DNA of 63,755 nt, counting the filler, from an uncultured bacterium (GTDB lineage Bacteria > Latescibacterota > UBA2968): NCBI GenBank assembly GCA_964471275.1. It is 2 parts of 2 records of this genome, joined end to end, with 100 filler letters (N's around TTAATTAATTAA, not from the genome) between each part and the next. Parts side by side here need not be neighbours in the genome. Positions count along the whole stretch, not along the records: positions 32,016 to 63,755 come from CAYYGZ010000022.1; 1 more part is not named here. One strand, given 5' to 3'. The notes under the pieces were generated by a model. The model was given only the letters and a program-made list of their open reading frames with translations, did not search any database and was not told where the DNA came from. The position numbers and the translations under genes are program-made. Below, piece by piece: positions 39,642-51,941 of this stretch (the stretch's first letter is position 1; every line of letters starts with the position of its first letter).

Positions 39642-40694
39642 TCAGGCATTCCAATCGATATAGTTCGCGCTCTCGTTCATCAGCGTCTGGACATACTCGC
39701 TGATCAGGTGCTCGTCCGGTTTCGTCTCCAGCATCCGCATCGTGAACGGTCGCATCACGGGCACCCGCATGATCGGATCGGTCCAGTCTTGGACATACAC
39801 CGTGTCCGGGAGCGATTCGAGAATCGTCCGGATATTTGTCTCCAGGTCATCGGAATGGTAATCCTGCAGCTCCGTCACGTGGAACGACTCGGGGACGAAC
39901 GTCTGCAGGTCGTGAATCGAGCGCGTCTTGTGACTTTGCAGTGTCTCGTTAAAGGCGCGCTGCAAGGCGATCTGACCGTCCAGGTGAGCGCACGACCGGA
40001 CGAACGGCCCGATATCTCGTGGGCAGACGATCGCGTGAATTGTCGTCACCTTCGGATTCTCGCCCGGCACGGCGACCGCGAGCATCTTCTCGGACACGAC
40101 CGGATGAAACTCCGTTAGTCCCGGGTCGATAAACTCACGATGGGCAAGCCCGAATCTCCCCAGATGCAGACAGACATCGAGATGTTCATACATCTCGAGC
40201 AGGCCGTGAAGCACGCACTCGAGCACATTGTTGCCAGCCGACACCCCGTCCGCTGTCTCGTTCAGGTGTTCGATCACATCGTTGGGCATCGTCGCCGGCA
40301 CCAGCGACAGATCGTCTGTCAGCTCATATACGGGAGCGTTCCCGCCCTGCTCGAGCCGGATGAACAGGGAGAGACGTTCGATCGCCTCCGCGAGTGCCCC
40401 CGCGGACACTTGATCCTTGTTGAGACCCTTGCCCATCGTGCGCATGGCCTCGCCCTCCATGAGCGGTCCTTCATACTGCCGGAACATCTCGGGGTTCTCG
40501 TAGTCCGTGTAGCAATCCGAGATCCACACGGTACCGTAATACCGTCGGGCACGCACCTTGTAGTTGCACCGTCGACCCAGAGCTGCCTGGAAGTCCCGGA
40601 TCGTCTGCTGAAACGGCACGGTCCGGTCCGCATTAACGATATGGCTGTGCTCGTGATCGACAGGGGTCGAGCAGATGGGATCAGCTGCCGTCAC
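39642..40694 (-). CDS. YcaO-like family protein (divergent)
   Basis: DRTVP, MGKG...SAGALAEAIER, DGVSAGN...HGLLEMYEHLD, AHLD..IALQRAFNETLQ, VQDWT...VPV. Confidence 0.82.
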   Translation of the reverse strand: MTAADPICSTPVDHEHSHIVNADRTVPFQQTIRDFQAALGRRCNYKVRARRYYGTVWISDCYTDYENPEMFRQYEGPLMEGEAMRTMGKGLNKDQVSAGALAEAIERLSLFIRLEQGGNAPVYELTDDLSLVPATMPNDVIEHLNETADGVSAGNNVLECVLHGLLEMYEHLDVCLHLGRFGLAHREFIDPGLTEFHPVVSEKMLAVAVPGENPKVTTIHAIVCPRDIGPFVRSCAHLDGQIALQRAFNETLQSHKTRSIHDLQTFVPESFHVTELQDYHSDDLETNIRTILESLPDTVYVQDWTDPIMRVPVMRPFTMRMLETKPDEHLISEYVQTLMNESANYIDWNA

Positions 40695-41848
40695 CCTTTC
40701 TGCCCCCGTGCTCCTCCGCCTGGCGCCATCCTCTCAAGATCTGCCGCTGCCTCGATGAACCGTCCCAGCTGTCGATAGGCCTCACCGCGGGCCGATATCG
40801 CGAATATGTCCTCGGGATCGAGAGCGATCGCACGGTTGTAGTCTTCGAGTGCCTCCTCGCAGCGATCCAGCTGTCGGTAGGTCTCGCCTCGACGGGCCCA
40901 GATCCAACTGTCCTGACCGTCGATCGCAATCGCTCGGTCGAAGTCGGCAAGCGCCTTCTCGAACTCATACATCCTGCGGTAGGTTTCCGCACGACCGGCC
41001 AACGCCGGGGCATCCTCTGCATCCAGAGCGATCGCACGGTCAAAGTCCTCGAGCGCGGACTGAAACTGGTTCTGCTGTCGGTAGGTTTCGCCGCGCCCGG
41101 CCAGGGCTGCTGGCGATTCGCCAAATGTCTCGATTAGAAGGGAGAAATCATCGAGTGCTTCGTCAAGTCGTCCGGACTGTCGATATGCGATGCCCCGACT
41201 CATAAGAGCGCCGTCGTATTCCGGGTTAATCGACAGCGCTTGCGTAAAGTCAGCCTCGGCCTCTTCCCATCGGCCCTGGATCCGGTACACTTCTCCCCGG
41301 CACGCGTAGGCTTCTGGGTTTCCGGGGTCCCGTGAGATGGAGGCGTTGAAGTCGGCGAGCGCCCTATCGTATTCGCCGATCTCTCTGAAGATGTCCCCCC
41401 GGCCCACAAGCACGCCGGTCATCGACGGATCAAGTCTGAGTGCGGTCGTAAAATCATCAGCCGCTTCCTCGAGTCGGCCCATCACACGCTTTGTGTCCGC
41501 CCGACTGGCGATCACGATCGCATCACCAGGCGCCAGTTCAACGGCACGATCAAAGTCAGAGATCGAGGCGTCGAACTCGCCCGCGAGCCCGCGTGCGATC
41601 GCCCGGTTCGTGTAGAGCCAGCCGTCGTTTGGGCTCCGGGAAATGGCTCCGTCGAGCGCCTCGAGTGCGGCTGGCAGCTGGCCAGTTTGACCCAGCGTAA
41701 TGGCGAGTTCGCCCGCAGCCTGTGCGTGGTCGGGATCGAGTTCGAGCGCGGACCGGAAATCAGCGAGCGCTTGCTCAAACCGGCCCTGATCGCGCACAGC
41801 CAGTCCTCGATCGACAAGCTCATCGGCGGAATGTGACACGTCTGGCAT
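40691..41848 (-). CDS. Tetratricopeptide repeat protein
   Basis: About 11 regular 34-aa TPRs (RG..Y...G..E.A..DF..AI.LDP); GTGA overlap with ycaO. Confidence 0.92.
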   Translation of the reverse strand: MPDVSHSADELVDRGLAVRDQGRFEQALADFRSALELDPDHAQAAGELAITLGQTGQLPAALEALDGAISRSPNDGWLYTNRAIARGLAGEFDASISDFDRAVELAPGDAIVIASRADTKRVMGRLEEAADDFTTALRLDPSMTGVLVGRGDIFREIGEYDRALADFNASISRDPGNPEAYACRGEVYRIQGRWEEAEADFTQALSINPEYDGALMSRGIAYRQSGRLDEALDDFSLLIETFGESPAALAGRGETYRQQNQFQSALEDFDRAIALDAEDAPALAGRAETYRRMYEFEKALADFDRAIAIDGQDSWIWARRGETYRQLDRCEEALEDYNRAIALDPEDIFAISARGEAYRQLGRFIEAAADLERMAPGGGARGQKG

Positions 41849-42862: not shown

Positions 42863-44146
42863 TTACTCCGCGATCGAACGCCCGAAATTCTCGACAAAAG
42901 TCAGGAAATCAGAAAAATCCACCGAGCCGCTCTGGTCGACATCGTATACGGGGTCGGTCGTGCCAAACGCACCGGCGAAACCGAGGAAATCAACGAAATC
43001 CACCGAGCCGCTGCCATCGAAGTCTGTTCGCGTATCCGCCGGGATGGCCTGTCCGGCACCCGTGATGTCTACCGCGACCGAAGCCTTATCTGGGTCGTCA
43101 CTCAGAACCGTAACGGTGCCGGTGAACGCTCCCTCACCCGACGGCTGCACGGTAACCGTGATCGTTCTCGATTCTCCCGGTCCCAGCGTGAAGGCCTGGT
43201 CGGATACCGTCAGGCTTGTCAGATCACTCTGGACATCTGTAACCGTCAGCGGTCCGAGACCCTCGTTCCGGATCTCAATTGTCCGAGACAGGGATCGTCC
43301 CACCTCGATCGTGCCGTAGTCGACCTGTTCGGTCGGTAATGCGATCGCTGGTGGCAAACCGCCTTCGATCAGAATACTCGAGATCGGGAGCGACCAGTTC
43401 TTCTCGTTCGTCACGACTTCGACTGATCCGGTAAGCGTTCCTTCTCGCGTCGGGCTCAGCGTGATCGTAAACTGCTCGCTGGCGTTTGGACTCACCGTGA
43501 ATGCGGTGCGGTCAACGGTGACCTGATCCGATGAGGGTCGGATTGCCGTCACCTCCAGGTCTACCAAACCCGTGTTCTCGACGGTAATCTCGATCTTTCG
43601 CTCAACACCAACCTCACCTCTCGTCCCCCAATACAGCGACTTGGGCTTCAACTCAGACACAGGCATCGGATCGTTGATGAGATCGATCAGATCGACAACC
43701 TTGTCTCGATCCGCGACGCTCAGGATCCCGCGAACGATTCCGCCAGGATCGACGACGATGATATTCTCGACACCCAGTCCCCAGGGCATCCCATCGCTCG
43801 TTCCATTCTGCAGCAGCAGGAACTTGACCTGGGTGACAAACTGATACGCGTTCAGCTGGGTCGCCGACCCATTCCACAGATCGACGCCCACCATCTCGAA
43901 ATTCTTGTCTCGCGTTACGTCGACAATCTCTTCTTGCACGAACGGACCCGCCGCTCTGCAGACGCCTCAGTCGTGGCCCAGAAGAAAGATACCCAGGATC
44001 TTCCCTCGATATTGCGACGGGCTTCGGAAGGTGCCGTTCAGGTCGGGCAGCGTGAAATCGTGAATCGGTTGGCCCACAAGCGTCTGACCGACACTGGGGG
44101 CCGCGGCCGCAAGGAAGAGCAGTACCCCGGCTGTCAGTTTTCTCAT
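42863..44146 (-). CDS. Secreted selenoprotein: redoxin/AhpC-TSA domain (UxxC) + two Ig-like (ASH/choice-of-anchor D-like) domains + dockerin/EF-hand-like tail
   Basis: GGAGG RBS, ATG 44146, signal peptide MRKLTAGVLLFLAAAAPSVG, DFTLPDLNG...YRGKILGIFLLGHD-TGA(43969-43967)-GVC, then in frame into the track ORF 42863..43939; 427 aa with U60. Confidence 0.88.
43935..43960 (-). promoter_or_regulatory. Bacterial SECIS-like hairpin just 3' of the Sec UGA
   Basis: mRNA UGA GGCGUC UGCA GAGCGG CGGGU CCGUUC G UGCA: a 6-bp upper stem plus a 4-bp lower stem, with a G-rich apical loop. Confidence 0.72.
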
Positions 44147-44400
44147 TCTATCCTCCGTAGTACTAACTCCCCGTAAGCCGGAAGGTCCTTTGCTTTCACC
44201 GGGGAAATATCGTCAATTCAGCAGAACGCTTTCCGAGTATGCCAAAACCGTTCCGGAATTCCTCTCAGAACTGTAACCACCTGAAATTAAAAATCTTAGG
44301 GACACAAACCGGGATCAAAGATCAGGCGGCCGAATACCTGTATCGGATGCAAGCGTGAGACCCCCCGGCAGACTCTAGCGGTCGCAGAAGAGCAGCGCAC

Positions 44401-45963
44401 CTAGAAACGGGTCAGAATGCGCAGCTCGGCTCCCCGGAACGCCAGCACCTCGTAGCAGGTTCCGGATGTGCAGGCTGTCCCTCCCCGTCGCTCGCCGGCA
44501 AAGAGCAGGGCCTCATAGCGGTTGAATCGGGCATTCGCATGGATGGAAAAGAACCGAACCGGTTCCGTCTCGAACGCCAGTGTCTCGGGCAGGTCGGTCT
44601 CCGACAGGTTGGTCGAGCGATCCATCACAAGCGCCGCACCGAACCCGGCGGGAGATTGCCAGGACAACTGCGCATAGGTGTCCCAGTACCACGGTTCCAC
44701 GCCAAAGGGCAGTTTGCCTCTCTGGAGTTCCAGGCTCAACTCGAAGGACTGCCCCGCGGACGTCGTTGTCCCTAGAAGAACCCCACCCGTGCGGTGCGCG
44801 GTTAGCGCCTCCAGCTCGTCCCTGCCCCAATCAATGAAGACGGAGGCGTTCTGCGCGGAAGGAAGGAAATCCAGATCGAGCCCTATATACCGTTCCTCGA
44901 AAACCGTCGATACCCGAGCGGACAGCTGGTTCTTCCCTCGACTAACATTTCCCGTCACCGTGACAATCCCCGGAATGGGGTATACCGCTTCGATCTGGTA
45001 ACCCTTTTCGTTCAACGTCTGTAGAATGTGCGTGTTCCGGTTGAGCAGATAGGCGGCGTGTTCACGAACCAGCTGCGGAGGATCGTTGGCGAGCAAATCG
45101 AAATTGTCGTAGTCCTTGTATTCGACGCTGAAGCCGAAAGAACCGATTCCGAAATTGCCTGCCAGGTAGCGACCGTGTCCGTCACTCGTGAATTTCTCTC
45201 TACGACCCAGCTCCGCATACAGATCGCCACACACCGAAGTCAGCCCAGTCCGTTCGAACAAGGGGCCGAGTTCGAGCCCTGCCAGCCACGACCAGGCGTA
45301 GCTGTTGTCGACCCCATCCGGGCGCAGGTTCACGGCCGTCCCCCCGATCTTCAGCGCTGGAAAAGGCCGCACGTGGACCTCACCACCCAGGATCCAGTCT
45401 TCCCGACGGTCGCTCCCAACGCCTACCAGCTTTTCAAACAAACTGATCGAGTCCGGATAACCTGGTGAGATGTCGCCGGCAACGGGACGACCGGCCAGCG
45501 CCTTGACCTCGAACAGGTCATCAGACCACGACACCAACCCACCTTCCATATCCTGCGTGTTCGTATACCGCTGCCTGAATAGCGCGCTTTCGATGATCGA
45601 ACCGGACAGCTCGAAGGCACGCATCGTCAGCCCGCGACCCAGGATTCCGGTAAAATTCCCACCGGTAACGTATGCGGGTCCATTAGACCACAACACATAT
45701 CGTTCGCTGAGAAACGTCATCCTTCTGTCCTCGACGGATGCCCGGTAGATCTCGAACCGGCCCCCGGCCTGGATTGCACCCATCGTGTAATCGACGCTGA
45801 ACTGCTCATACACATTCGAGAAATCCTCGGCATCTTCGTTCGGCACGCGTCCGCGCTGTGCCTCCGTAACACTCGTTACCGATAGCTGTCCGGCAACCCG
45901 TTCGGGCAAGTGGACCCACGACACCAGAAAAATGATCAGACAGATTCGGCTCAGCATTCTCAT
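44401..45963 (-). CDS. DUF6029-like outer-membrane beta-barrel protein
   Basis: Signal peptide, GRGLTMRAFE, SVEYKDY, C-terminal RRGGTACTSGTCYEV...RILTRF ending in Phe; ATGA-coupled to TlpA. Confidence 0.75.
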   Translation of the reverse strand: MRMLSRICLIIFLVSWVHLPERVAGQLSVTSVTEAQRGRVPNEDAEDFSNVYEQFSVDYTMGAIQAGGRFEIYRASVEDRRMTFLSERYVLWSNGPAYVTGGNFTGILGRGLTMRAFELSGSIIESALFRQRYTNTQDMEGGLVSWSDDLFEVKALAGRPVAGDISPGYPDSISLFEKLVGVGSDRREDWILGGEVHVRPFPALKIGGTAVNLRPDGVDNSYAWSWLAGLELGPLFERTGLTSVCGDLYAELGRREKFTSDGHGRYLAGNFGIGSFGFSVEYKDYDNFDLLANDPPQLVREHAAYLLNRNTHILQTLNEKGYQIEAVYPIPGIVTVTGNVSRGKNQLSARVSTVFEERYIGLDLDFLPSAQNASVFIDWGRDELEALTAHRTGGVLLGTTTSAGQSFELSLELQRGKLPFGVEPWYWDTYAQLSWQSPAGFGAALVMDRSTNLSETDLPETLAFETEPVRFFSIHANARFNRYEALLFAGERRGGTACTSGTCYEVLAFRGAELRILTRF

Positions 45964-46484
45964 TCGGAGGCAGACTCCTTAGATGTCTCGAGACCGAGAA
46001 CAGATTCGATCGCATCGATCAGAAGATCTTCCTGGCCCTTCACAAAACCGGTTTGCCGAAAAACAATCTCACCGTCCTGATCGATCAACACCGTGCTGGG
46101 CAAAGCGGACACACGCATCCGCTTCCGGACCCCGCCATCCAGATCGAGTGCGATCGGAAAAGTGAGCTTCCGTGCCCTCAGAAACGGCTTCACCGTCGGC
46201 TGACCTCGAGGTCCATCCTCGTTGACACCTACGACGATCAGACCCCGTGTATGATACTGATCGTGGATCTCCTGAATCTTCGGCATTGCCTTGACACAGG
46301 GCTTGCACCACGTTGCCCAGAAGTCGAGCAGTACAGGCCCGTCCTCGAGCATCGACTTCAAATGGACGCGTCTACCCTCGGGTGATCGAAGATTGAAATC
46401 GGGCGCCAGATCAGATGCGGCAATGGGACGAGTAAGTGACAACACCACACAAACTAGGAAGCAACGAATGGCGACTCTCGTCAT
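45960..46484 (-). CDS. TlpA-like disulfide reductase (thioredoxin fold)
   Basis: Signal peptide, APDFNL, LLDFWATWCKPC, ALPSTVLIDQDG. Confidence 0.93.
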   Translation of the reverse strand: MTRVAIRCFLVCVVLSLTRPIAASDLAPDFNLRSPEGRRVHLKSMLEDGPVLLDFWATWCKPCVKAMPKIQEIHDQYHTRGLIVVGVNEDGPRGQPTVKPFLRARKLTFPIALDLDGGVRKRMRVSALPSTVLIDQDGEIVFRQTGFVKGQEDLLIDAIESVLGLETSKESASE

Positions 46485-46729: not shown

Positions 46730-47044
46730 TCACGTGCACCCTGTCGGTGTTGGCAATCCGGCAATCTTGCACGCACCGTCTGCTGGCCCATCGGGAAACA
46801 GATCATAGATCGTATCGATATCCTTCTGGGTGACCTTGCACAGACGCCGGATCAGCGGCGCGATCTCGAACTTCAGGTAGTATTCTCGGATATAGTTCAC
46901 GACAGACCAGTGATCGTCGGTCATCTCCCCGATCCCAATTCCCCTCGCGATATCCCGAGCAACCGCTTCATCCCAGCGTTCAGGCTGTTGGATGAACCCC
47001 TCGTCATCCACATCGATTTCCTTGCCCCCCAGCATCGTCGTCAT
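46730..47044 (-). CDS. dsrC: DsrC/TusE family sulfur-relay protein, two-Cys C-terminus
   Basis: VDDEGFI...WDE.VA, HWSVVNYIR, LFPDGPADGACKIAGLPTPTGCT (CX10C); ATG 47044 with GGAG upstream. Confidence 0.9.
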   Translation of the reverse strand: MTTMLGGKEIDVDDEGFIQQPERWDEAVARDIARGIGIGEMTDDHWSVVNYIREYYLKFEIAPLIRRLCKVTQKDIDTIYDLFPDGPADGACKIAGLPTPTGCT

Positions 47045-47085
47045 AACTGCCACGTAATTCTCCAGTCCAGATATGTGCGCCAACT

Positions 47086-47178
47086 CGTTCCAAAAGGGCA
47101 GAAACGTTCCAGGTTCCACAAGACCTGACGCACCTGGGCCCTTGGAACCTGGAACGCTCTTCCTTCAGTTTTGGAACG
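47086..47178. repeat. Dispersed palindromic repeat family A, copy 2
   Basis: Nested IRs: CGTTCCAAAA/TTTTGGAACG outside, perfect CGTTCCAGGTTCCA/TGGAACCTGGAACG (47105-47156) inside. Confidence 0.7.
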
Positions 47179-47187
47179 CCTCTTCTT

Positions 47188-48357
47188 TCAATCTCCGTGC
47201 CGGGTACTGATGTCTCTCAGCCCCGCGAGCAGCGCATCCACGTGTTCATCCGTGTTGAACGGGCCGAGCGAAATCCTCACCGTTCCTTTTCGCGACACCG
47301 TATCGAGCCGCTGATGAACACGCGGCGCACACAGAAGTCCGGTTCGCGTTGCGATCCCGAATTTCACATCCAGCAGGGTGCCGACGTTGTTGGCGGTCAT
47401 CCCGTCGACATTCACCGACACAACGGGCAGACGATCCTCACTGCGAGTGTCGCCATAGACGGTAAGACCATCCGTCTCTGCCAGTCCGTCCAGCAGACGA
47501 CGTGTCAGAGACCGCTCCCTGGCCTCGATCGTGTTGAGTCCCCGCTCTGCGATCCAGTCCAGGGCGGCGTGCATCCCCGCAATCCCGAGAAGGTTGATCG
47601 TCCCGCACTCCAGCCGCCAGGGATACGCCTCAAGGTGATCCAGTTGTTCCGATCGGACACCCGTTCCCCCGTATCGAAGCGGGGCAACATCGATGCCTTC
47701 TCTCACATACATCCCGCCGATCCCGCTCGGTCCCATCAACGACTTGTGGCCTGTAAAACAGACGATATCCACGCACATCGCTTCCATATCGATCGGAATC
47801 ATCCCGGCCGTTTGGGCGACATCCAGAATCAGCGTCACTTCTGCGTCACGGCAGATCCGACCGATATCCGCAATCGGCTGCACGGTACCCAGTGCGTTCG
47901 AACCGTGTGACATCACCACAGCCTTCGTGTCAGGGCGCAGGGCCTCGCTGCAAACCTGCGGGTCGACCCGTCCCGTTTTATCGAAAGGCAGATAGGTCGA
48001 TGCGATCCCGTCATATTCGGTCAGGTGATAAACCGGACGAAGAACGGAATTGTGGTCGAGGTCGGTCGTGATCACGTGATCACCGGACGACAGTGTCCCC
48101 TGTATCGCGATGTTCAACGCATCGGAGGCGTTCTGCGTAAACACCAGCCGATCGGGATCCCCCGTTGCGCCGAAGAAGGCTGTAAGCCGCTCGCGAGTCG
48201 ACCGAACCATCTGCTCTGCCTCCACCGCCAGATCCGTTCCGCTCCGCCCGGGGTTCACCCCGTAGCGGCCATACCACGCCATTGCCGAAGCCATCACCTC
48301 GGGAGGCTTTGGGAATGTCGTCGCCGCGTTGTCGCAGTAGATCAGCTCGTCAGCCAC
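47188..48357 (-). CDS. Cysteine desulfurase/selenocysteine lyase family (class V PLP enzyme)
   Basis: IYCDNAATTFPKP, DHNSV.RP, DVAQTAG, FTGHKSL (PLP Lys), RTGLLCAP (catalytic Cys); GTG 48357 after GAGGAG, overlapping the DsrK-like stop. Confidence 0.9.
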   Translation of the reverse strand: MADELIYCDNAATTFPKPPEVMASAMAWYGRYGVNPGRSGTDLAVEAEQMVRSTRERLTAFFGATGDPDRLVFTQNASDALNIAIQGTLSSGDHVITTDLDHNSVLRPVYHLTEYDGIASTYLPFDKTGRVDPQVCSEALRPDTKAVVMSHGSNALGTVQPIADIGRICRDAEVTLILDVAQTAGMIPIDMEAMCVDIVCFTGHKSLMGPSGIGGMYVREGIDVAPLRYGGTGVRSEQLDHLEAYPWRLECGTINLLGIAGMHAALDWIAERGLNTIEARERSLTRRLLDGLAETDGLTVYGDTRSEDRLPVVSVNVDGMTANNVGTLLDVKFGIATRTGLLCAPRVHQRLDTVSRKGTVRISLGPFNTDEHVDALLAGLRDISTRHGD

Positions 48358-49726
48358 TCGCGTTCTCCTCACCTTCGAGCACGATCGCGGAATACACCAG
48401 TTCGTGCACACCCGTCACTTTCTGCGGAAGCTTGTAGTGACGGACCAGTTCCTTCAACTGCGTGCGGCACTGGAGACAGGACGTAGATACCACCTCGGCG
48501 CTCGACGCCTGCAATTGCTCGAGCTTTTTCTTACCCGAAATGTCCATCCGGAAATCGTGGACCGACCGGAGGGCCGAGAGTCCACCGCCGCCACCGCAGC
48601 ACCACTGGGTCGGGCCGCAGGCGTCCATCTCCTCATAGTCTGAACAGGATGCCTTCACGATCGCCCTCGGTTCCTCGACAATGTTGCAGCCCGCCGCAAA
48701 CTGACACGAATCGTGGTAAGTCACACGTTCGGTATTTCGCTCGGGGTCCAACTGGATCGTGTCATTCTCGATCAGATCCGAGGTGTACTCGAAAGCGCTC
48801 GTGATCTCGAATGGAAGCGAGCCCCACCATAGCCCCTCGGCGGCCATGAACTTCATTACCCGGTAGGCGTGTCCGCATTCACCCATCACCATCGTCTTGC
48901 AGCCGATCTTCTCTGCTTCATCGATATAGTGCTTGGCCTCGAAGCGCATCGAAAAATTGTTGCCTGTCGTAAAACCGAAGTTGGCGCCATCGAATGCGCG
49001 GCTGCTCATCGTCCAGCTGGCGCCGGCAGCGTAGAACACTTTTGCCATCCCCATCAGGTTCTCCGCGTAGACCAGTACGTCACCGGACGGTGGGACAAAG
49101 TAGATCTCCGCGCCTTCCGCGTCGATCGAGATCGGAATGTCGAGGCCTGTCTCCTCCTTCAGTTCTTCTTCCAGAAACTGGACACTATCGATCATCGCCT
49201 CGGGTGAAGCGCCTTCGAGATTACCCGTATCGAACGAATTGTCCGTGCCCTGCGCTAATGCAGGGGGTGTCAGGCCCATGTAGTCGACCAGTGACCTGCC
49301 TACACGTGTCACGACCGAGTGATCGATCCCGACGGGGCAATAGGCTGCGCATCGTCGACAGGCCAGACACTCGTACATTCGTTCAGCAAACAGTTCAGCA
49401 TCGTCGTTCTCAAAATCAGGTCTGGGCCAGATCGCATTCTTGAGACGCCCCCACCACGTCGCGTGCTTCCGATAGAGCTGGATGACCTGGCTAGAGCGCT
49501 CGACTGGATGCATGCGTTCCGTGGGCTGCCCATAGTAGACCGGGCACTCCTCTGCACAAATCCCACACTTTGTGCAAATGTCCGCGTAGAGCATGAAGGC
49601 GGAGGGCTCATCCTGGATATCGCGGACAAACGGGTCTGGGTCGGCAACACGACGCATGTAGGCGCCGACCATTCCAGGCGGGATGAATTTCTTGTCGCGA
49701 TCTGTCTGTGTTGTGAAGTTGGGCAA
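48350..49726 (-). CDS. DsrK/HmcF-like heterodisulfide-reductase-type Fe-S protein (CCG domain)
   Basis: CTKCGICAEECP, CLACRRCAAYCP, GECGH, YHDSC, CCGGGGG, SCLQC. Start uncertain (TTG 49726, ATG 49672 or ATG 49657). Confidence 0.88.
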   Translation of the reverse strand: MPNFTTQTDRDKKFIPPGMVGAYMRRVADPDPFVRDIQDEPSAFMLYADICTKCGICAEECPVYYGQPTERMHPVERSSQVIQLYRKHATWWGRLKNAIWPRPDFENDDAELFAERMYECLACRRCAAYCPVGIDHSVVTRVGRSLVDYMGLTPPALAQGTDNSFDTGNLEGASPEAMIDSVQFLEEELKEETGLDIPISIDAEGAEIYFVPPSGDVLVYAENLMGMAKVFYAAGASWTMSSRAFDGANFGFTTGNNFSMRFEAKHYIDEAEKIGCKTMVMGECGHAYRVMKFMAAEGLWWGSLPFEITSAFEYTSDLIENDTIQLDPERNTERVTYHDSCQFAAGCNIVEEPRAIVKASCSDYEEMDACGPTQWCCGGGGGLSALRSVHDFRMDISGKKKLEQLQASSAEVVSTSCLQCRTQLKELVRHYKLPQKVTGVHELVYSAIVLEGEENASG

Positions 49727-49837
49727 GGGGTGTCGGGTGTCGGGTGTCGGGTGTCGGGTGTCGGGTGTCGGGTGTCGGGTGTCGGCAAGTCGGCAAGTCG
49801 GCAAGTCGGCAAGTCGGCAAGTCGGCAAGTCGGCAAG
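49722..49837. repeat. Compound tandem repeat: (GGGTGTC)x8 + (GGCAAGTC)x6 + partial unit
   Basis: 7-mers at 49728-49783, 8-mers at 49784-49831; GGCAAGG at both 49722-49728 and 49832-49838. Confidence 0.95.
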
Positions 49838-49992
49838 GAAATATACGGAAATGGCGACTGGGTCCTAGCGAGGCTATCCCTCAAATATGGGCACTTCTGC
49901 TTTGATCCGTGACTTCGAGCAGGTTTACACGTCGTGCAAGGCGTATCGAGAAGCCATGTTGTGTGGCCACGAAGAAGACGCAAACCAGGTCA

Positions 49993-50760
49993 TCAATCCA
50001 CATCACCCGAGAACGAGTCAGGGGATGCCAGGAACCGTCTGCTGATGAAGATGCCGCCGGAGTGGAGGAGATGACTGAACGGCATCACGACCAGAAGCAG
50101 CTGAACGGTCAGAAGATGGAGAACCAGGTTCGGGCCCAATGCGGGTGCGGCAGGCGCAAACACGGCAAGGCTCTCCAGATAGGCAGAGAAGGCAGCGCCG
50201 TCCGGAGGGTCATACGCGACCCAGAGACCCGTCACGACAGTGAGACCAAGTAGGATCTCGGAGAGATAGTCCGTGAGCGAAGTGATCTGGCGAACACGGG
50301 TCACCAGAACCCGGCGAACCAGAAGCACTGCCGCGCTGCCTAGGAGAATCCAGCCTGATGTTCGGCCGATGTCCCTAAGGAACGGCTTGTCCACCCATTC
50401 TGACAGCGGAAGGATCCACTTCAGGTGAAGCACGAAGAGGAGCGTCAGCGATACATGGTACAGCCAGGACCCGAGCCAGAGCAATTTGTCGCGCCGAAAC
50501 AGACCCGCGAAGAGGATGAAACCCTTGAAATCCCGCCAGAGACGCACGCCTCCCGTATCAACCGGATTCGGGAACAGTTCGATTGTCGGTCGATACTGGC
50601 GTGCCCAGACTGCCCTCGTGCTTCTGGGGCCCGGGATCAGCTTCAGGGCAGGATTGTAGAGCTTCATCCAGAACCAGAGACGTAGGAGGATCAGGATCGT
50701 GTATACGGGGACCACGACGTACGGCATGATCACCAGTGTTATGTAGGTGAGTGTGTCGAT
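49993..50760 (-). CDS. DsrM/HmcE/NarI-like membrane cytochrome b
   Basis: TM helices with heme-ligand His pairs WLYHVSLTLLFVLH and LHLL...PFSHLLHSGG. Frame is open upstream to the N gap at 50813; start uncertain. Confidence 0.85.
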   Translation of the reverse strand: MDTLTYITLVIMPYVVVPVYTILILLRLWFWMKLYNPALKLIPGPRSTRAVWARQYRPTIELFPNPVDTGGVRLWRDFKGFILFAGLFRRDKLLWLGSWLYHVSLTLLFVLHLKWILPLSEWVDKPFLRDIGRTSGWILLGSAAVLLVRRVLVTRVRQITSLTDYLSEILLGLTVVTGLWVAYDPPDGAAFSAYLESLAVFAPAAPALGPNLVLHLLTVQLLLVVMPFSHLLHSGGIFISRRFLASPDSFSGDVD

Positions 50761-50927
50761 CTCTTCGCACTCGAGATAGGATTGCAGACCATCGGTTTGG
50801 GTCGATCCAGCCNNNNNNNNNNTTTAGGCAAACTCAAACCAATACAGAAGGTTTTCACGCGCAGTCGAATCTTGTAGATTAACTCCGTTCGCTAAATACT
50901 CACAAGACCAATGAGCCCCTCTGACCC

Positions 50928-51941
50928 ATGAAAATTCGAATAATCTTTACGCTGGCCTTGCTCGCCTGCTCCGCTCAGGATGACCCATCGGACGTCAACA
51001 TCGCTCCTCTGCCTGAGGACAGGACCGGTTACACATACATCAAGCCGGGCGGGTTCCAGATCAATTACAATCGCGAATTCGTTCCTGCGAACAAGGCCGA
51101 ACTTGGCGCCAAAGACATCGTCATTGGAGTCAATCTGGATGGCGAGGCCAGAGCCTATCCGGTCAACTTCATGACGGGACCGGTCAACGAAGTCGTGAAC
51201 GATCACGTGGGTAAGTCGAACATCACCGTCGCCTGGTGTTCGGTCGACTACAGCGGTGTCGTCTACCATCGCGAGTTCGAAGGACGACCGTATCACTTCG
51301 GTGTCATGGGTATGGACAACGGAGTGATGGTCCTTTATGATCGGCAGACCGGTTCACGGTGGAATCAACTCGTAGGGAAAGCCGTAAGCGGGCAGATGGA
51401 AGGCGAACGTCTTCGCACGCTGCCGTCCACCCTGACCAGTTGGGAGCAATGGCGCGAATCCCATCCGGAAACAACTGTCTACGTCAACCGACGTGTCCCG
51501 TATCAGTCCCAGTTTACAGCCGCGTCAATACGCGAATTAGCCACAAAGGACAAGAGCTCAGAGCTAACGCAGACAGACTTGGTGCTTGCGCTCGAGGGAC
51601 ATATCGACGCCAAGGCCTATCCCATCAAACAGCTTGCGAAAGATCCCGTCGTCAACGACTCGTTCGAACAGGTGCCTATTCTCGTTGCTCTCTCTGACGA
51701 CCTCTCTACAGCCAAGATCTATGACCGCCGGGTCGATGGTCGCACGCTGACATTCGAGAGATCCTGGTTTGGTGGAAAGTTGGTCGATACCGAAACCGGA
51801 ACGGAATGGAACCTCCTCACGGGCCAGGGAATCAACGGCAGTCTCTCCGGGCAGACGCTTCAACCCATCCCGGCCACTTACGTCCTCTGGTATGCCTGGA
51901 AGACCTATAGACCGGACTCGGCCATTCACGGACAAGGCTGA
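50928..51941 (+). CDS. DUF3179 domain lipoprotein
   Basis: Lipobox LLAC; GEARAYP...EVVND.VG, LYDRQTGSRWNQ..G.AVSG, internally duplicated second half (AKAYP...VVND...DTETGTEW). Confidence 0.85.
   Translation: MKIRIIFTLALLACSAQDDPSDVNIAPLPEDRTGYTYIKPGGFQINYNREFVPANKAELGAKDIVIGVNLDGEARAYPVNFMTGPVNEVVNDHVGKSNITVAWCSVDYSGVVYHREFEGRPYHFGVMGMDNGVMVLYDRQTGSRWNQLVGKAVSGQMEGERLRTLPSTLTSWEQWRESHPETTVYVNRRVPYQSQFTAASIRELATKDKSSELTQTDLVLALEGHIDAKAYPIKQLAKDPVVNDSFEQVPILVALSDDLSTAKIYDRRVDGRTLTFERSWFGGKLVDTETGTEWNLLTGQGINGSLSGQTLQPIPATYVLWYAWKTYRPDSAIHGQG

Follow-up and report, generated by a model that had tools for sequence, protein, structure and literature searches.

A cysteine desulfurase joined to DsrC and a DsrMK-like membrane pair in Latescibacterota, a candidate route from cysteine sulfur to sulfide

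The DsrMKJOP complex is a menadiol:DsrC-trisulfide oxidoreductase (PMC10861901), and DsrC and DsrMK are counted among the minimal components of sulfite respiration (PMC10504309); a prediction tool scores DsrC without DsrAB as a false positive (PMC8477390). M-K pairs without JOP are described as well, namely dsrM2K2 paralogues mentioned in 10.1101/197269, a basal MK-only DsrK clade (7 of 74 bacterial assemblies without DsrAB; PMC10504309) and DsrM-1 complexes reported in a preprint; for two-subunit DsrMK, quinol oxidation at M was proposed (10.64898/2026.08.25.746951). Here we describe a locus in a 63,755-nt stretch of DNA (the window, to which all coordinates without a prefix refer) from an uncultured Latescibacterota bacterium, GCA_964471275.1. 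The locus lies within CAYYGZ010000022.1, where the genes of a DsrM-like cytochrome (M), a DsrK-like iron-sulfur protein (K), a cysteine desulfurase and DsrC follow each other in this order, all on the minus strand. Every part is a known family and the combination appears undescribed; a literature search covering few subscription papers (the 2014 DsrC review was outside it) found no published desulfurase-DsrC-MK operon. The module likely forms an undescribed route from cysteine sulfur to sulfide.

An earlier note on the window had described a co-directional membrane cytochrome b, CCG-domain iron-sulfur protein, overlapping class V desulfurase and two-cysteine DsrC, and family scans confirmed all of it. 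The M gene (49993..50757) encodes a DsrM-like/NarI-family diheme cytochrome b of about 250 aa (PF02665, E 1e-11), which scored 51.7 bits on the DsrM model NF038037 and did not reach its cut-off of 300; His119, 129, 232 and 250 (P0001 numbering) were conserved in 21-23 of 23 aligned homologues. An M-K pair without JOP and with four heme-ligating His in M fits two-subunit DsrMK of the DsrM-1 type. The best model for K (48350..49726, 458 aa) was DsrK NF045796 with 297.7 bits, under the cut-off of 400, and the true DsrK of metagenome locus L209 scored 719.4 on it. K carries two cubane motifs, GECGH (Cys284, His286) and a single complete CCG motif (Cys341, 376, 377, 417, 420), which matches the signature of the DsrK/HmcF/TmcB group, GECGH with one CCG motif (PMC10861901). 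At position 420 K has Cys where DsrMKJOP-type DsrK, that of L209 included, has Asp; K paralogues in dsrMK arrangements, including that of A. fulgidus, keep Cys at this site (PMC10861901), and the Asp was suggested to suit an oxygenated intermediate, with the sulfur relay placed on the GECGH cysteine (10.64898/2026.08.25.746951). A search by sequence gave no close solved structure for K, and the K of relatives labelled Candidatus Latescibacterota was 75% identical.

The third gene (47188..48357, 389 aa), which starts with a GTG codon and shares its first 8 bases with the end of the K gene, encodes a group II cysteine desulfurase/selenocysteine lyase with pyridoxal phosphate (PLP) Lys205 and catalytic Cys343, and it scored 411.6 bits on TIGR01977 (cut-off 377). 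SclA (EF2568) belongs to the same TIGR01977 family and shares the group II motif, the PLP lysine and the catalytic cysteine, but the window enzyme stayed under the cut-off of the SclA model NF040779 (326 vs 525 bits), lies on another contig than selD and thus outside an SclA-type selD cluster, and is partnered with DsrC. The DsrC gene (46730..47053, 107 aa) has the pair Cys95-X10-Cys106 and scored 108.4 bits on TIGR03342 (cut-off 53.5) and 80.8 on the TusE model NF008562, below its cut-off of 191; its best solved relatives are reductive-type DsrC, and it was the only DsrC-family gene found in the host genome.

Compared with DsrMK(JOP) of sulfite and sulfate reducers (PMC10861901; 10.64898/2026.08.25.746951), the locus is alike in its two-cysteine DsrC, diheme M and K motifs and in the menaquinone genes of the host. 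However, no DsrAB, DsrJOP, DsrT or AprA was found here, Cys stands in K instead of the conserved Asp, the desulfurase is fixed in the operon, and the expected substrate would be a persulfide or disulfide and not a trisulfide. Trees were built with FastTree (Shimodaira-Hasegawa-like support), and in the tree of 87 rows K sat on a long stem within the clade of M-K pairs without JOP. By sequence, M and K are therefore assigned to the stand-alone DsrMK paralogue clade and not to DsrMKJOP, and this clade probably matches dsrM2K2 and the basal clade of PMC10504309. The other carriers of stand-alone DsrMK share M-K without JOP with the window K but differ in two ways. Among 50 of the 73 non-family genomes behind K-relative loci, those searched for dsrB, it was found in 35 of 37 genomes in or near the K clade versus 1 of 13 of the rest, and the DsrC-family proteins beside non-family K relatives lack CX10C (28/28), whereas the DsrC of the host family groups with canonical two-cysteine DsrC in a weak tree with few columns. 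So the family appears to have taken a canonical two-cysteine DsrC from another group, plus the desulfurase, which would make the module a chimera.

Two other arrangements were seen among the K relatives. At L058:999-1316, L063:7097-7414 and similar loci with stand-alone MK in dsrB-positive genomes, a DsrC variant has its inner Cys changed to Tyr or Phe and a new Cys seven residues earlier (28/28), and these loci often carry a helix-turn-helix regulator and a double-DsrC protein without the last cysteine. Loci of Coriobacteriia and Chloroflexota (L124:8061-11224, L111, L116, L120, L122, L128 and others) have an ArsR-type repressor, a DsrE2-like gene, TusA, M and K in a row, with dsrB in 1 of 12 genomes searched, and would be a second DsrAB-free MK module with other sulfur carriers.

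Conservation of the operon and the search for DsrAB

The phylum set comprised 168 genomes, with 30 in the host family and 22 in its sister family, and the searches scored the best 10-11 candidates per genome. DsrC was found in 27 of 30 family genomes and in none of the 22 sister-family genomes. TIGR01977 (E 1e-95) was found in the same 27 genomes, in 0/22 of the sister family and in one genome outside the family. Regions were then fetched from all 28 family genomes in which at least one module gene occurs, and M, K, desulfurase and DsrC stood in order on one contig in 26 of the 30 family genomes; in the remaining four the module was split over two contig ends once, cut after K once and missing twice. 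The desulfurase therefore keeps its position in relatives, a point on which the earlier note had made its reading depend, while the flanking genes vary between genera. The common upstream neighbour in relatives is a nitroreductase gene (e.g. L054:15766-16488), and on the other side lies a region with a futalosine hydrolase gene. In the host, the nitroreductase orthologue and a menaquinone gene are on another contig (G000:C4:182-4207), which means that this cassette sits elsewhere in this genus, and the nitroreductase was rejected as a module part for this reason. A gene pair unrelated to the module, single-cysteine TusE-like next to DsrE2-like, stands in other Latescibacterota (L172-L175; G051, G054, G062, G043).

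The earlier note had seen no dsrAB around the operon and named a dsrAB elsewhere, or one hidden in the scaffold gap at 50813..50822 (10 N) upstream of the M gene, as what would overturn its reading. Profile and tblastn searches did not find dsrA in the host genome, and for dsrB they gave nothing beyond a fragment of a NirA-family protein. The weak dsrA and dsrB matches in the family were small pieces of a protein of about 750 aa, and the host match was rejected as Dsr, being a NirA-family assimilatory-type reductase. No dsrA was over the cut-off in 41 relatives; dsrB was found in none of the 30 family genomes and in 1 of the 168 phylum genomes, outside the family. Thirteen module carriers are single-contig genomes, and all are dsrB-negative. 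In both same-genus genomes the gene order across the gap site holds no dsr gene, and with this and the family-wide absence a dsrAB hidden in the gap was rejected.

The suggested searches for dsrAB, dsrJOP and DsrE found none of them in the host genome. For dsrJ, dsrO and dsrP the queries were the corresponding L209 proteins (tblastn, E 1e-4), and tblastn with DsrA, DsrT-like, DsrJ, DsrO, DsrP, TusA and DsrE2 proteins from the fetched loci gave no match in the host. TusA, TusBCD, DsrE and AprA were not found in the host genome either, and DsrE was rejected as loader of DsrC, as there was none in the host, single copies in 9 of 30 relatives and none in the operon regions. The host encodes its housekeeping SufS and IscS elsewhere, so the operon desulfurase is an extra one. 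It also encodes a heme-copper oxidase, two PF02621 menaquinone genes, MnmA, molybdenum hydroxylase homologues, eight rhodanese matches and a selenocysteine-type SelD with an in-frame TGA. A scan of 17,044 open frames with sequence patterns, whose negatives are weak, found no motif of sulfide:quinone oxidoreductase (SQR), dioxygenase or hydrogenase.

Pairing of the desulfurase with DsrC

The four-gene order was also sought outside Latescibacterota, as the earlier note had advised, and beyond the family the linkage recurred with varied gene orders and K types in metagenomes and Acidobacteriota. A metagenome scan with a desulfurase alignment led by a distant member covered 3 of the 64 collection parts, and the following counts refer to the best 80 of its 585 loci. 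A DsrC-family gene stood in 39 of them, with CX10C in 24, and 20 of these had a K-like gene in addition; with the count limited to the 30 loci that have 2.5 kb of sequence on either side, these numbers became 18, 14 and 12. The common type of metagenome K was best on HmcF or TmcB in 6/6 tested, and three others were best on DsrK, one of them within a full dsrMKJOP operon. In all, a single desulfurase clade occurs together with three distinct types of K. In 15 loci the DsrC-family gene was without CX10C, and the desulfurases of these loci form a separate clade. In ten of these 15 (L237:759-4960, L242:2574-7170, L240:2988-7188 and 7 more), a molybdenum aldehyde oxidoreductase gene (about 890 aa) is followed by the gene of a single-cysteine TusE-like protein and next by that of a TIGR01977 desulfurase, a candidate two-step relay of sulfur or selenium to the molybdenum cofactor through a DsrC-fold carrier.

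Among 401 Acidobacteriota genomes, 69 had a close desulfurase, and 40 of these 69 regions, picked by score and size of contig, were fetched. Desulfurase, DsrC and K occurred together in 24 of the 40, all dsrB-negative and with an Hmc/Tmc-like membrane pair, and in 4 of the 24 the contig spans the whole genome; all 8 dsrB-positive regions were unlinked. A Fisher test of linkage against dsrB gave p 1.7e-4, a value that is overstated, the genomes being kin and their completeness not given. The K-like genes of Acidobacteriota and of most metagenome modules scored best on HmcF/TmcB, like the HmcEF/TmcCB of Desulfovibrio-type sulfate reducers, but they stayed far under the cut-offs, no cytochrome c subunits were seen in the loci, and the genomes are without dsrB. 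The desulfurase of L250 gave nothing at E 1e-130 against 401 genomes of the phylum of G215, so this version of the module has no taxon here. A locus of Syntrophobacter with M, K and desulfurase was rejected as an instance of the module, being sporadic: this K occurs in 3 of 61 genomes of the Syntrophobacter family, with a desulfurase behind it in 1, and that desulfurase belongs to the other clade.

A docking model of the desulfurase dimer with DsrC gave an interface score (ipSAE) of 0.64 versus 0.08 for the best control; the runs agreed in at least 82% of contacts, with a partner predicted local distance difference test (pLDDT) of at least 86. Of 157 solved complexes 116 reach the mark used, as do 2 of 215 mismatched pairs; for the present job these figures are only approximate. 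The predicted interface joins desulfurase 321-332, the helix before Cys343, with DsrC 67-92. Eight DsrC-family entries of the structure bank were judged by their names, and none was a desulfurase complex. In the known relays from IscS through TusA and TusBCD to TusE (E. coli) and from DsrEFH to DsrC (Allochromatium vinosum; PMC3397948), the persulfide likewise ends on the last Cys of a DsrC-fold protein, whereas here no TusA or DsrE intermediate was found, direct docking is predicted and a membrane redox pair is attached.

Then same-locus gene pairs were scanned for charge reversal, 27 from the family and 47 others. The only reversed position among the 389 of the desulfurase was 332, and those of DsrC were 61, 80 and 92; 332 and 80 touch in the model, and DsrC 80 and 92 are lineage-specific acidic residues. 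The family pair is K332-D80 (Lys-Asp) in 27/27. At the same two positions in the others (n=48), 40 pairs were acid-base, the reverse of the family, 7 were acid-neutral and 1, L209, had K332-D80, though its tree neighbours have Asp or Glu at 332; K332 occurred in 1 of 76 metagenome desulfurases, namely that of L209. A second contact, 321-92, is Thr-Asp in the family and an acid-base pair in 45 of the 48 others. Overall, DsrC is very probably the partner of the desulfurase.

Proposed reaction and its alternatives

The reading we prefer, by a slight balance of probability, is that the desulfurase loads DsrC with a persulfide and that MK reduces the loaded DsrC with menaquinol, with release of sulfide. 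It rests on the gene order, the conserved active-site residues, the absence of DsrAB in the searched genomes and the menaquinone biosynthesis genes. Group II desulfurases turn cysteine into alanine and form a persulfide on their catalytic cysteine. By this PLP desulfurase chemistry, the first step would be L-cysteine to L-alanine and an enzyme persulfide, and the sulfur would pass to Cys106 of DsrC. The DsrC arm would then enter K, where Cys284 and the non-cubane cluster would reduce the persulfide by two electrons; an alternative substrate would be the Cys95-Cys106 disulfide left once sulfide is released. K with Cys420 would reduce a persulfide or disulfide on DsrC, and its electrons would come from menaquinol through the hemes of M. 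The net reaction would be cysteine and menaquinol to alanine, H2S and menaquinone, a cysteine-degrading electron sink. Sulfide export needs two electrons in, whereas for sulfite export K would need a chemistry that it is not known to perform. With the cysteine/(alanine + H2S) couple at about -0.1 V, not far from menaquinone, the overall process would be roughly neutral and would be pulled by low sulfide.

Several findings weigh against this reductive reading. Reduction of a persulfide or disulfide by menaquinol is uphill on standard potentials, and with the heme-copper oxidase this means that the complex could run the other way; the host can likely respire oxygen, which favours the reverse direction thermodynamically. 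In a genome of the same genus (G001), a family 4 glycosyltransferase gene stands between M and K (L031:8145-9314). There was no DsrC in 41 of the best 80 metagenome loci (12 of the 30 with 2.5 kb on both sides), 8 of 32 dsrB-negative Acidobacteriota regions had neither DsrC nor K within about 4 kb, and 2 of the 24 linked Acidobacteriota DsrC were without the inner cysteine. The confident contacts of the docking model include neither catalytic cysteine, and the charge swap amounts to two evolutionary events at 332-80 and one at 321-92, with family rows that are kin. In up to four loci (L209:1-7224, L213, L266, L268) the desulfurase gene also comes after genuine dsrMK(JOP) genes, a hint that cysteine sulfur may enter DsrC in sulfite reducers, and dsrB is present in 17 of the 69 Acidobacteriota desulfurase genomes, so the enzyme is no simple stand-in for DsrAB. 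In dsrB-positive genomes the desulfurase keeps its acidic patch; it may feed the DsrC of sulfate reducers too or do something else. The earlier note had suggested that the desulfurase may replace DsrAB as the enzyme that loads DsrC. Its partnership with DsrC is backed by recurrence, docking and the reciprocal charge swap, but "replaces" needs a qualifier because the desulfurase would yield a persulfide and not the trisulfide of DsrAB, and because of its occurrence in these dsrB-positive genomes.

If the flow were reversed, K would oxidise the desulfurase-loaded sulfur of DsrC, with electrons going to menaquinone and the oxidase and the path ending in sulfite, as proposed for the sulfur-oxidising Hdr-like complexes. 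Electron flow from thiol to quinone is downhill. The heme-copper oxidase of the host and the lack of an SQR or persulfide-dioxygenase motif among its open frames (again a weak negative) fit such a path, and oxidation of persulfurated DsrC by DsrMK(JOP) was proposed in sulfur oxidisers (PMC8477390). However, the product would be a trisulfide, which is very stable (PMC10861901) and whose known exit, DsrAB, was not found here, the nearest K relatives are mostly in genomes with dsrB (35 of 37), and activity in this family has been measured in the reductive direction only, so we consider this direction unlikely. It is likewise unlikely that DsrC is a biosynthetic persulfide carrier fed by the desulfurase, for molybdenum cofactor sulfuration, tRNA thiolation or similar, with MK only resetting over-oxidised DsrC or giving two electrons for sulfur insertion. 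The host does have MnmA and molybdenum hydroxylase homologues, and a sister desulfurase clade stands beside single-cysteine TusE-like genes, in 10 loci directly behind the molybdenum aldehyde oxidoreductase; but the 20 loci with two-cysteine DsrC and K include none of these 10 molybdenum-enzyme loci, the family operon has no conserved client gene around it (its common neighbour, the nitroreductase, is on another contig here), the sister family is without DsrC, and TusA and TusBCD were not found in the host.

A module for selenium, in which the enzyme is a selenocysteine lyase and DsrC and MK traffic or detoxify selenium, is quite unlikely. What speaks for it, and against cysteine as the substrate, is that SclA of E. 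faecalis, the only characterised TIGR01977 member, prefers selenocysteine, a preference for which no single determining residue was found (10.1101/2020.02.07.939272), that the definition of TIGR01977 centred on EF2568, which lies in a selD cluster (PMC2276186), and that a selenocysteine-type SelD is present in the host, with SelD over the cut-off in 26 of 27 genomes searched. But the window enzyme does not reach the SclA model and tracks DsrC, not SelD: SelD occurs in 10 of 10 sister-family genomes without TIGR01977 and in the two family genomes without the module, and no selD is among the recurring neighbours listed. A membrane respiratory pair would also be a large investment for a trace element. 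The desulfurase might instead be a dedicated sulfur donor that builds or repairs the non-cubane cluster of K, with DsrC loaded otherwise, since its gene overlaps that of K, comes after dsrMK(JOP) in L209 and L266, two loci of the DsrAB type, and in one Syntrophobacter genome stands behind M-K with no DsrC. This we consider very unlikely: in the best 80 metagenome loci DsrC without K is commoner than K without DsrC (39 DsrC, 24 K), only 1 of the 73 K loci outside the family has the desulfurase adjacent, the other two Syntrophobacteraceae carrying this K have none nearby, and the docking model and charge swap point to DsrC. Finally, these could be ordinary Dsr genes, with dsrAB missed in the assembly or the cluster a decaying relic; what speaks for this is a genome of 369 contigs, 91.85% complete, whose assembly leaves a gap right before M. 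The family-wide absence of dsrB, which includes the 13 single-contig module carriers, and four intact frames with catalytic residues kept at 40-87% identity make this highly improbable.

The reductive reading, taken at its widest, would make cysteine a respiratory electron acceptor, with desulfurase, DsrC and MK as a menaquinol:cysteine reductase assembled at least twice, from different MK types, and widespread in uncultured bacteria without DsrAB; we regard this as doubtful, a tentative proposal. The DsrC-MK pair has another fixed partner across the Latescibacterota family and many Acidobacteriota. If the proposal is true, there would be a source of sulfide invisible to dsrAB surveys, a way for marine and sediment bacteria to form sulfide from organic sulfur, and a second entry of sulfur into the DsrC cycle of sulfate reducers. 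It would also provide a model for a DsrC cycle independent of sulfite reductase, and a function for orphan DsrC/DsrMK genes and for much of the uncharacterised TIGR01977. The system bears on the Cys-for-Asp exchange at the non-cubane cluster of K and on quinol oxidation at M of two-subunit DsrMK, and the desulfurase and DsrC form a soluble pair of small size, in which the predicted salt bridge is directly testable.

Gene calls and neighbouring features

The start codon of M is uncertain. Its frame is open up to the gap, with the first GTG at 50733, and by alignment the M of same-genus relatives begins near 50757, which places the gap upstream of the M gene. The K start is most likely the TTG at 49726, because the N-terminus from there is kept in relatives. 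For DsrC, a start at 47119 was dropped and the GTG at 47053 behind GGAG was taken instead. A promoter and terminator scan of the locus gave nothing above chance.

The M-K spacer holds two perfect, abutting short tandem arrays (49728..49837; a 7-mer x8.3 and an 8-mer x7.1), whose units form arrays at 3 and 2 places in the genome. They were not seen in the M-K spacers of two same-genus genomes, and the repeats were rejected as a module part, as they are not conserved. The divergent gene that the earlier note had placed about 100 nt beyond the gap is real. It is a DUF3179 gene (50928..51941, plus strand; PF11376), which starts 106 bases past the gap, and with a similar gene upstream of M in 1 of 28 family genomes it is a neighbour outside the module. 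Downstream of DsrC, 42863-46484 holds genes of a TlpA-like redoxin, a DUF6029 protein and an Ig-domain protein, an arrangement found in this genus only, and at 39642-41848 a YcaO-like gene lies behind a TPR-repeat gene.

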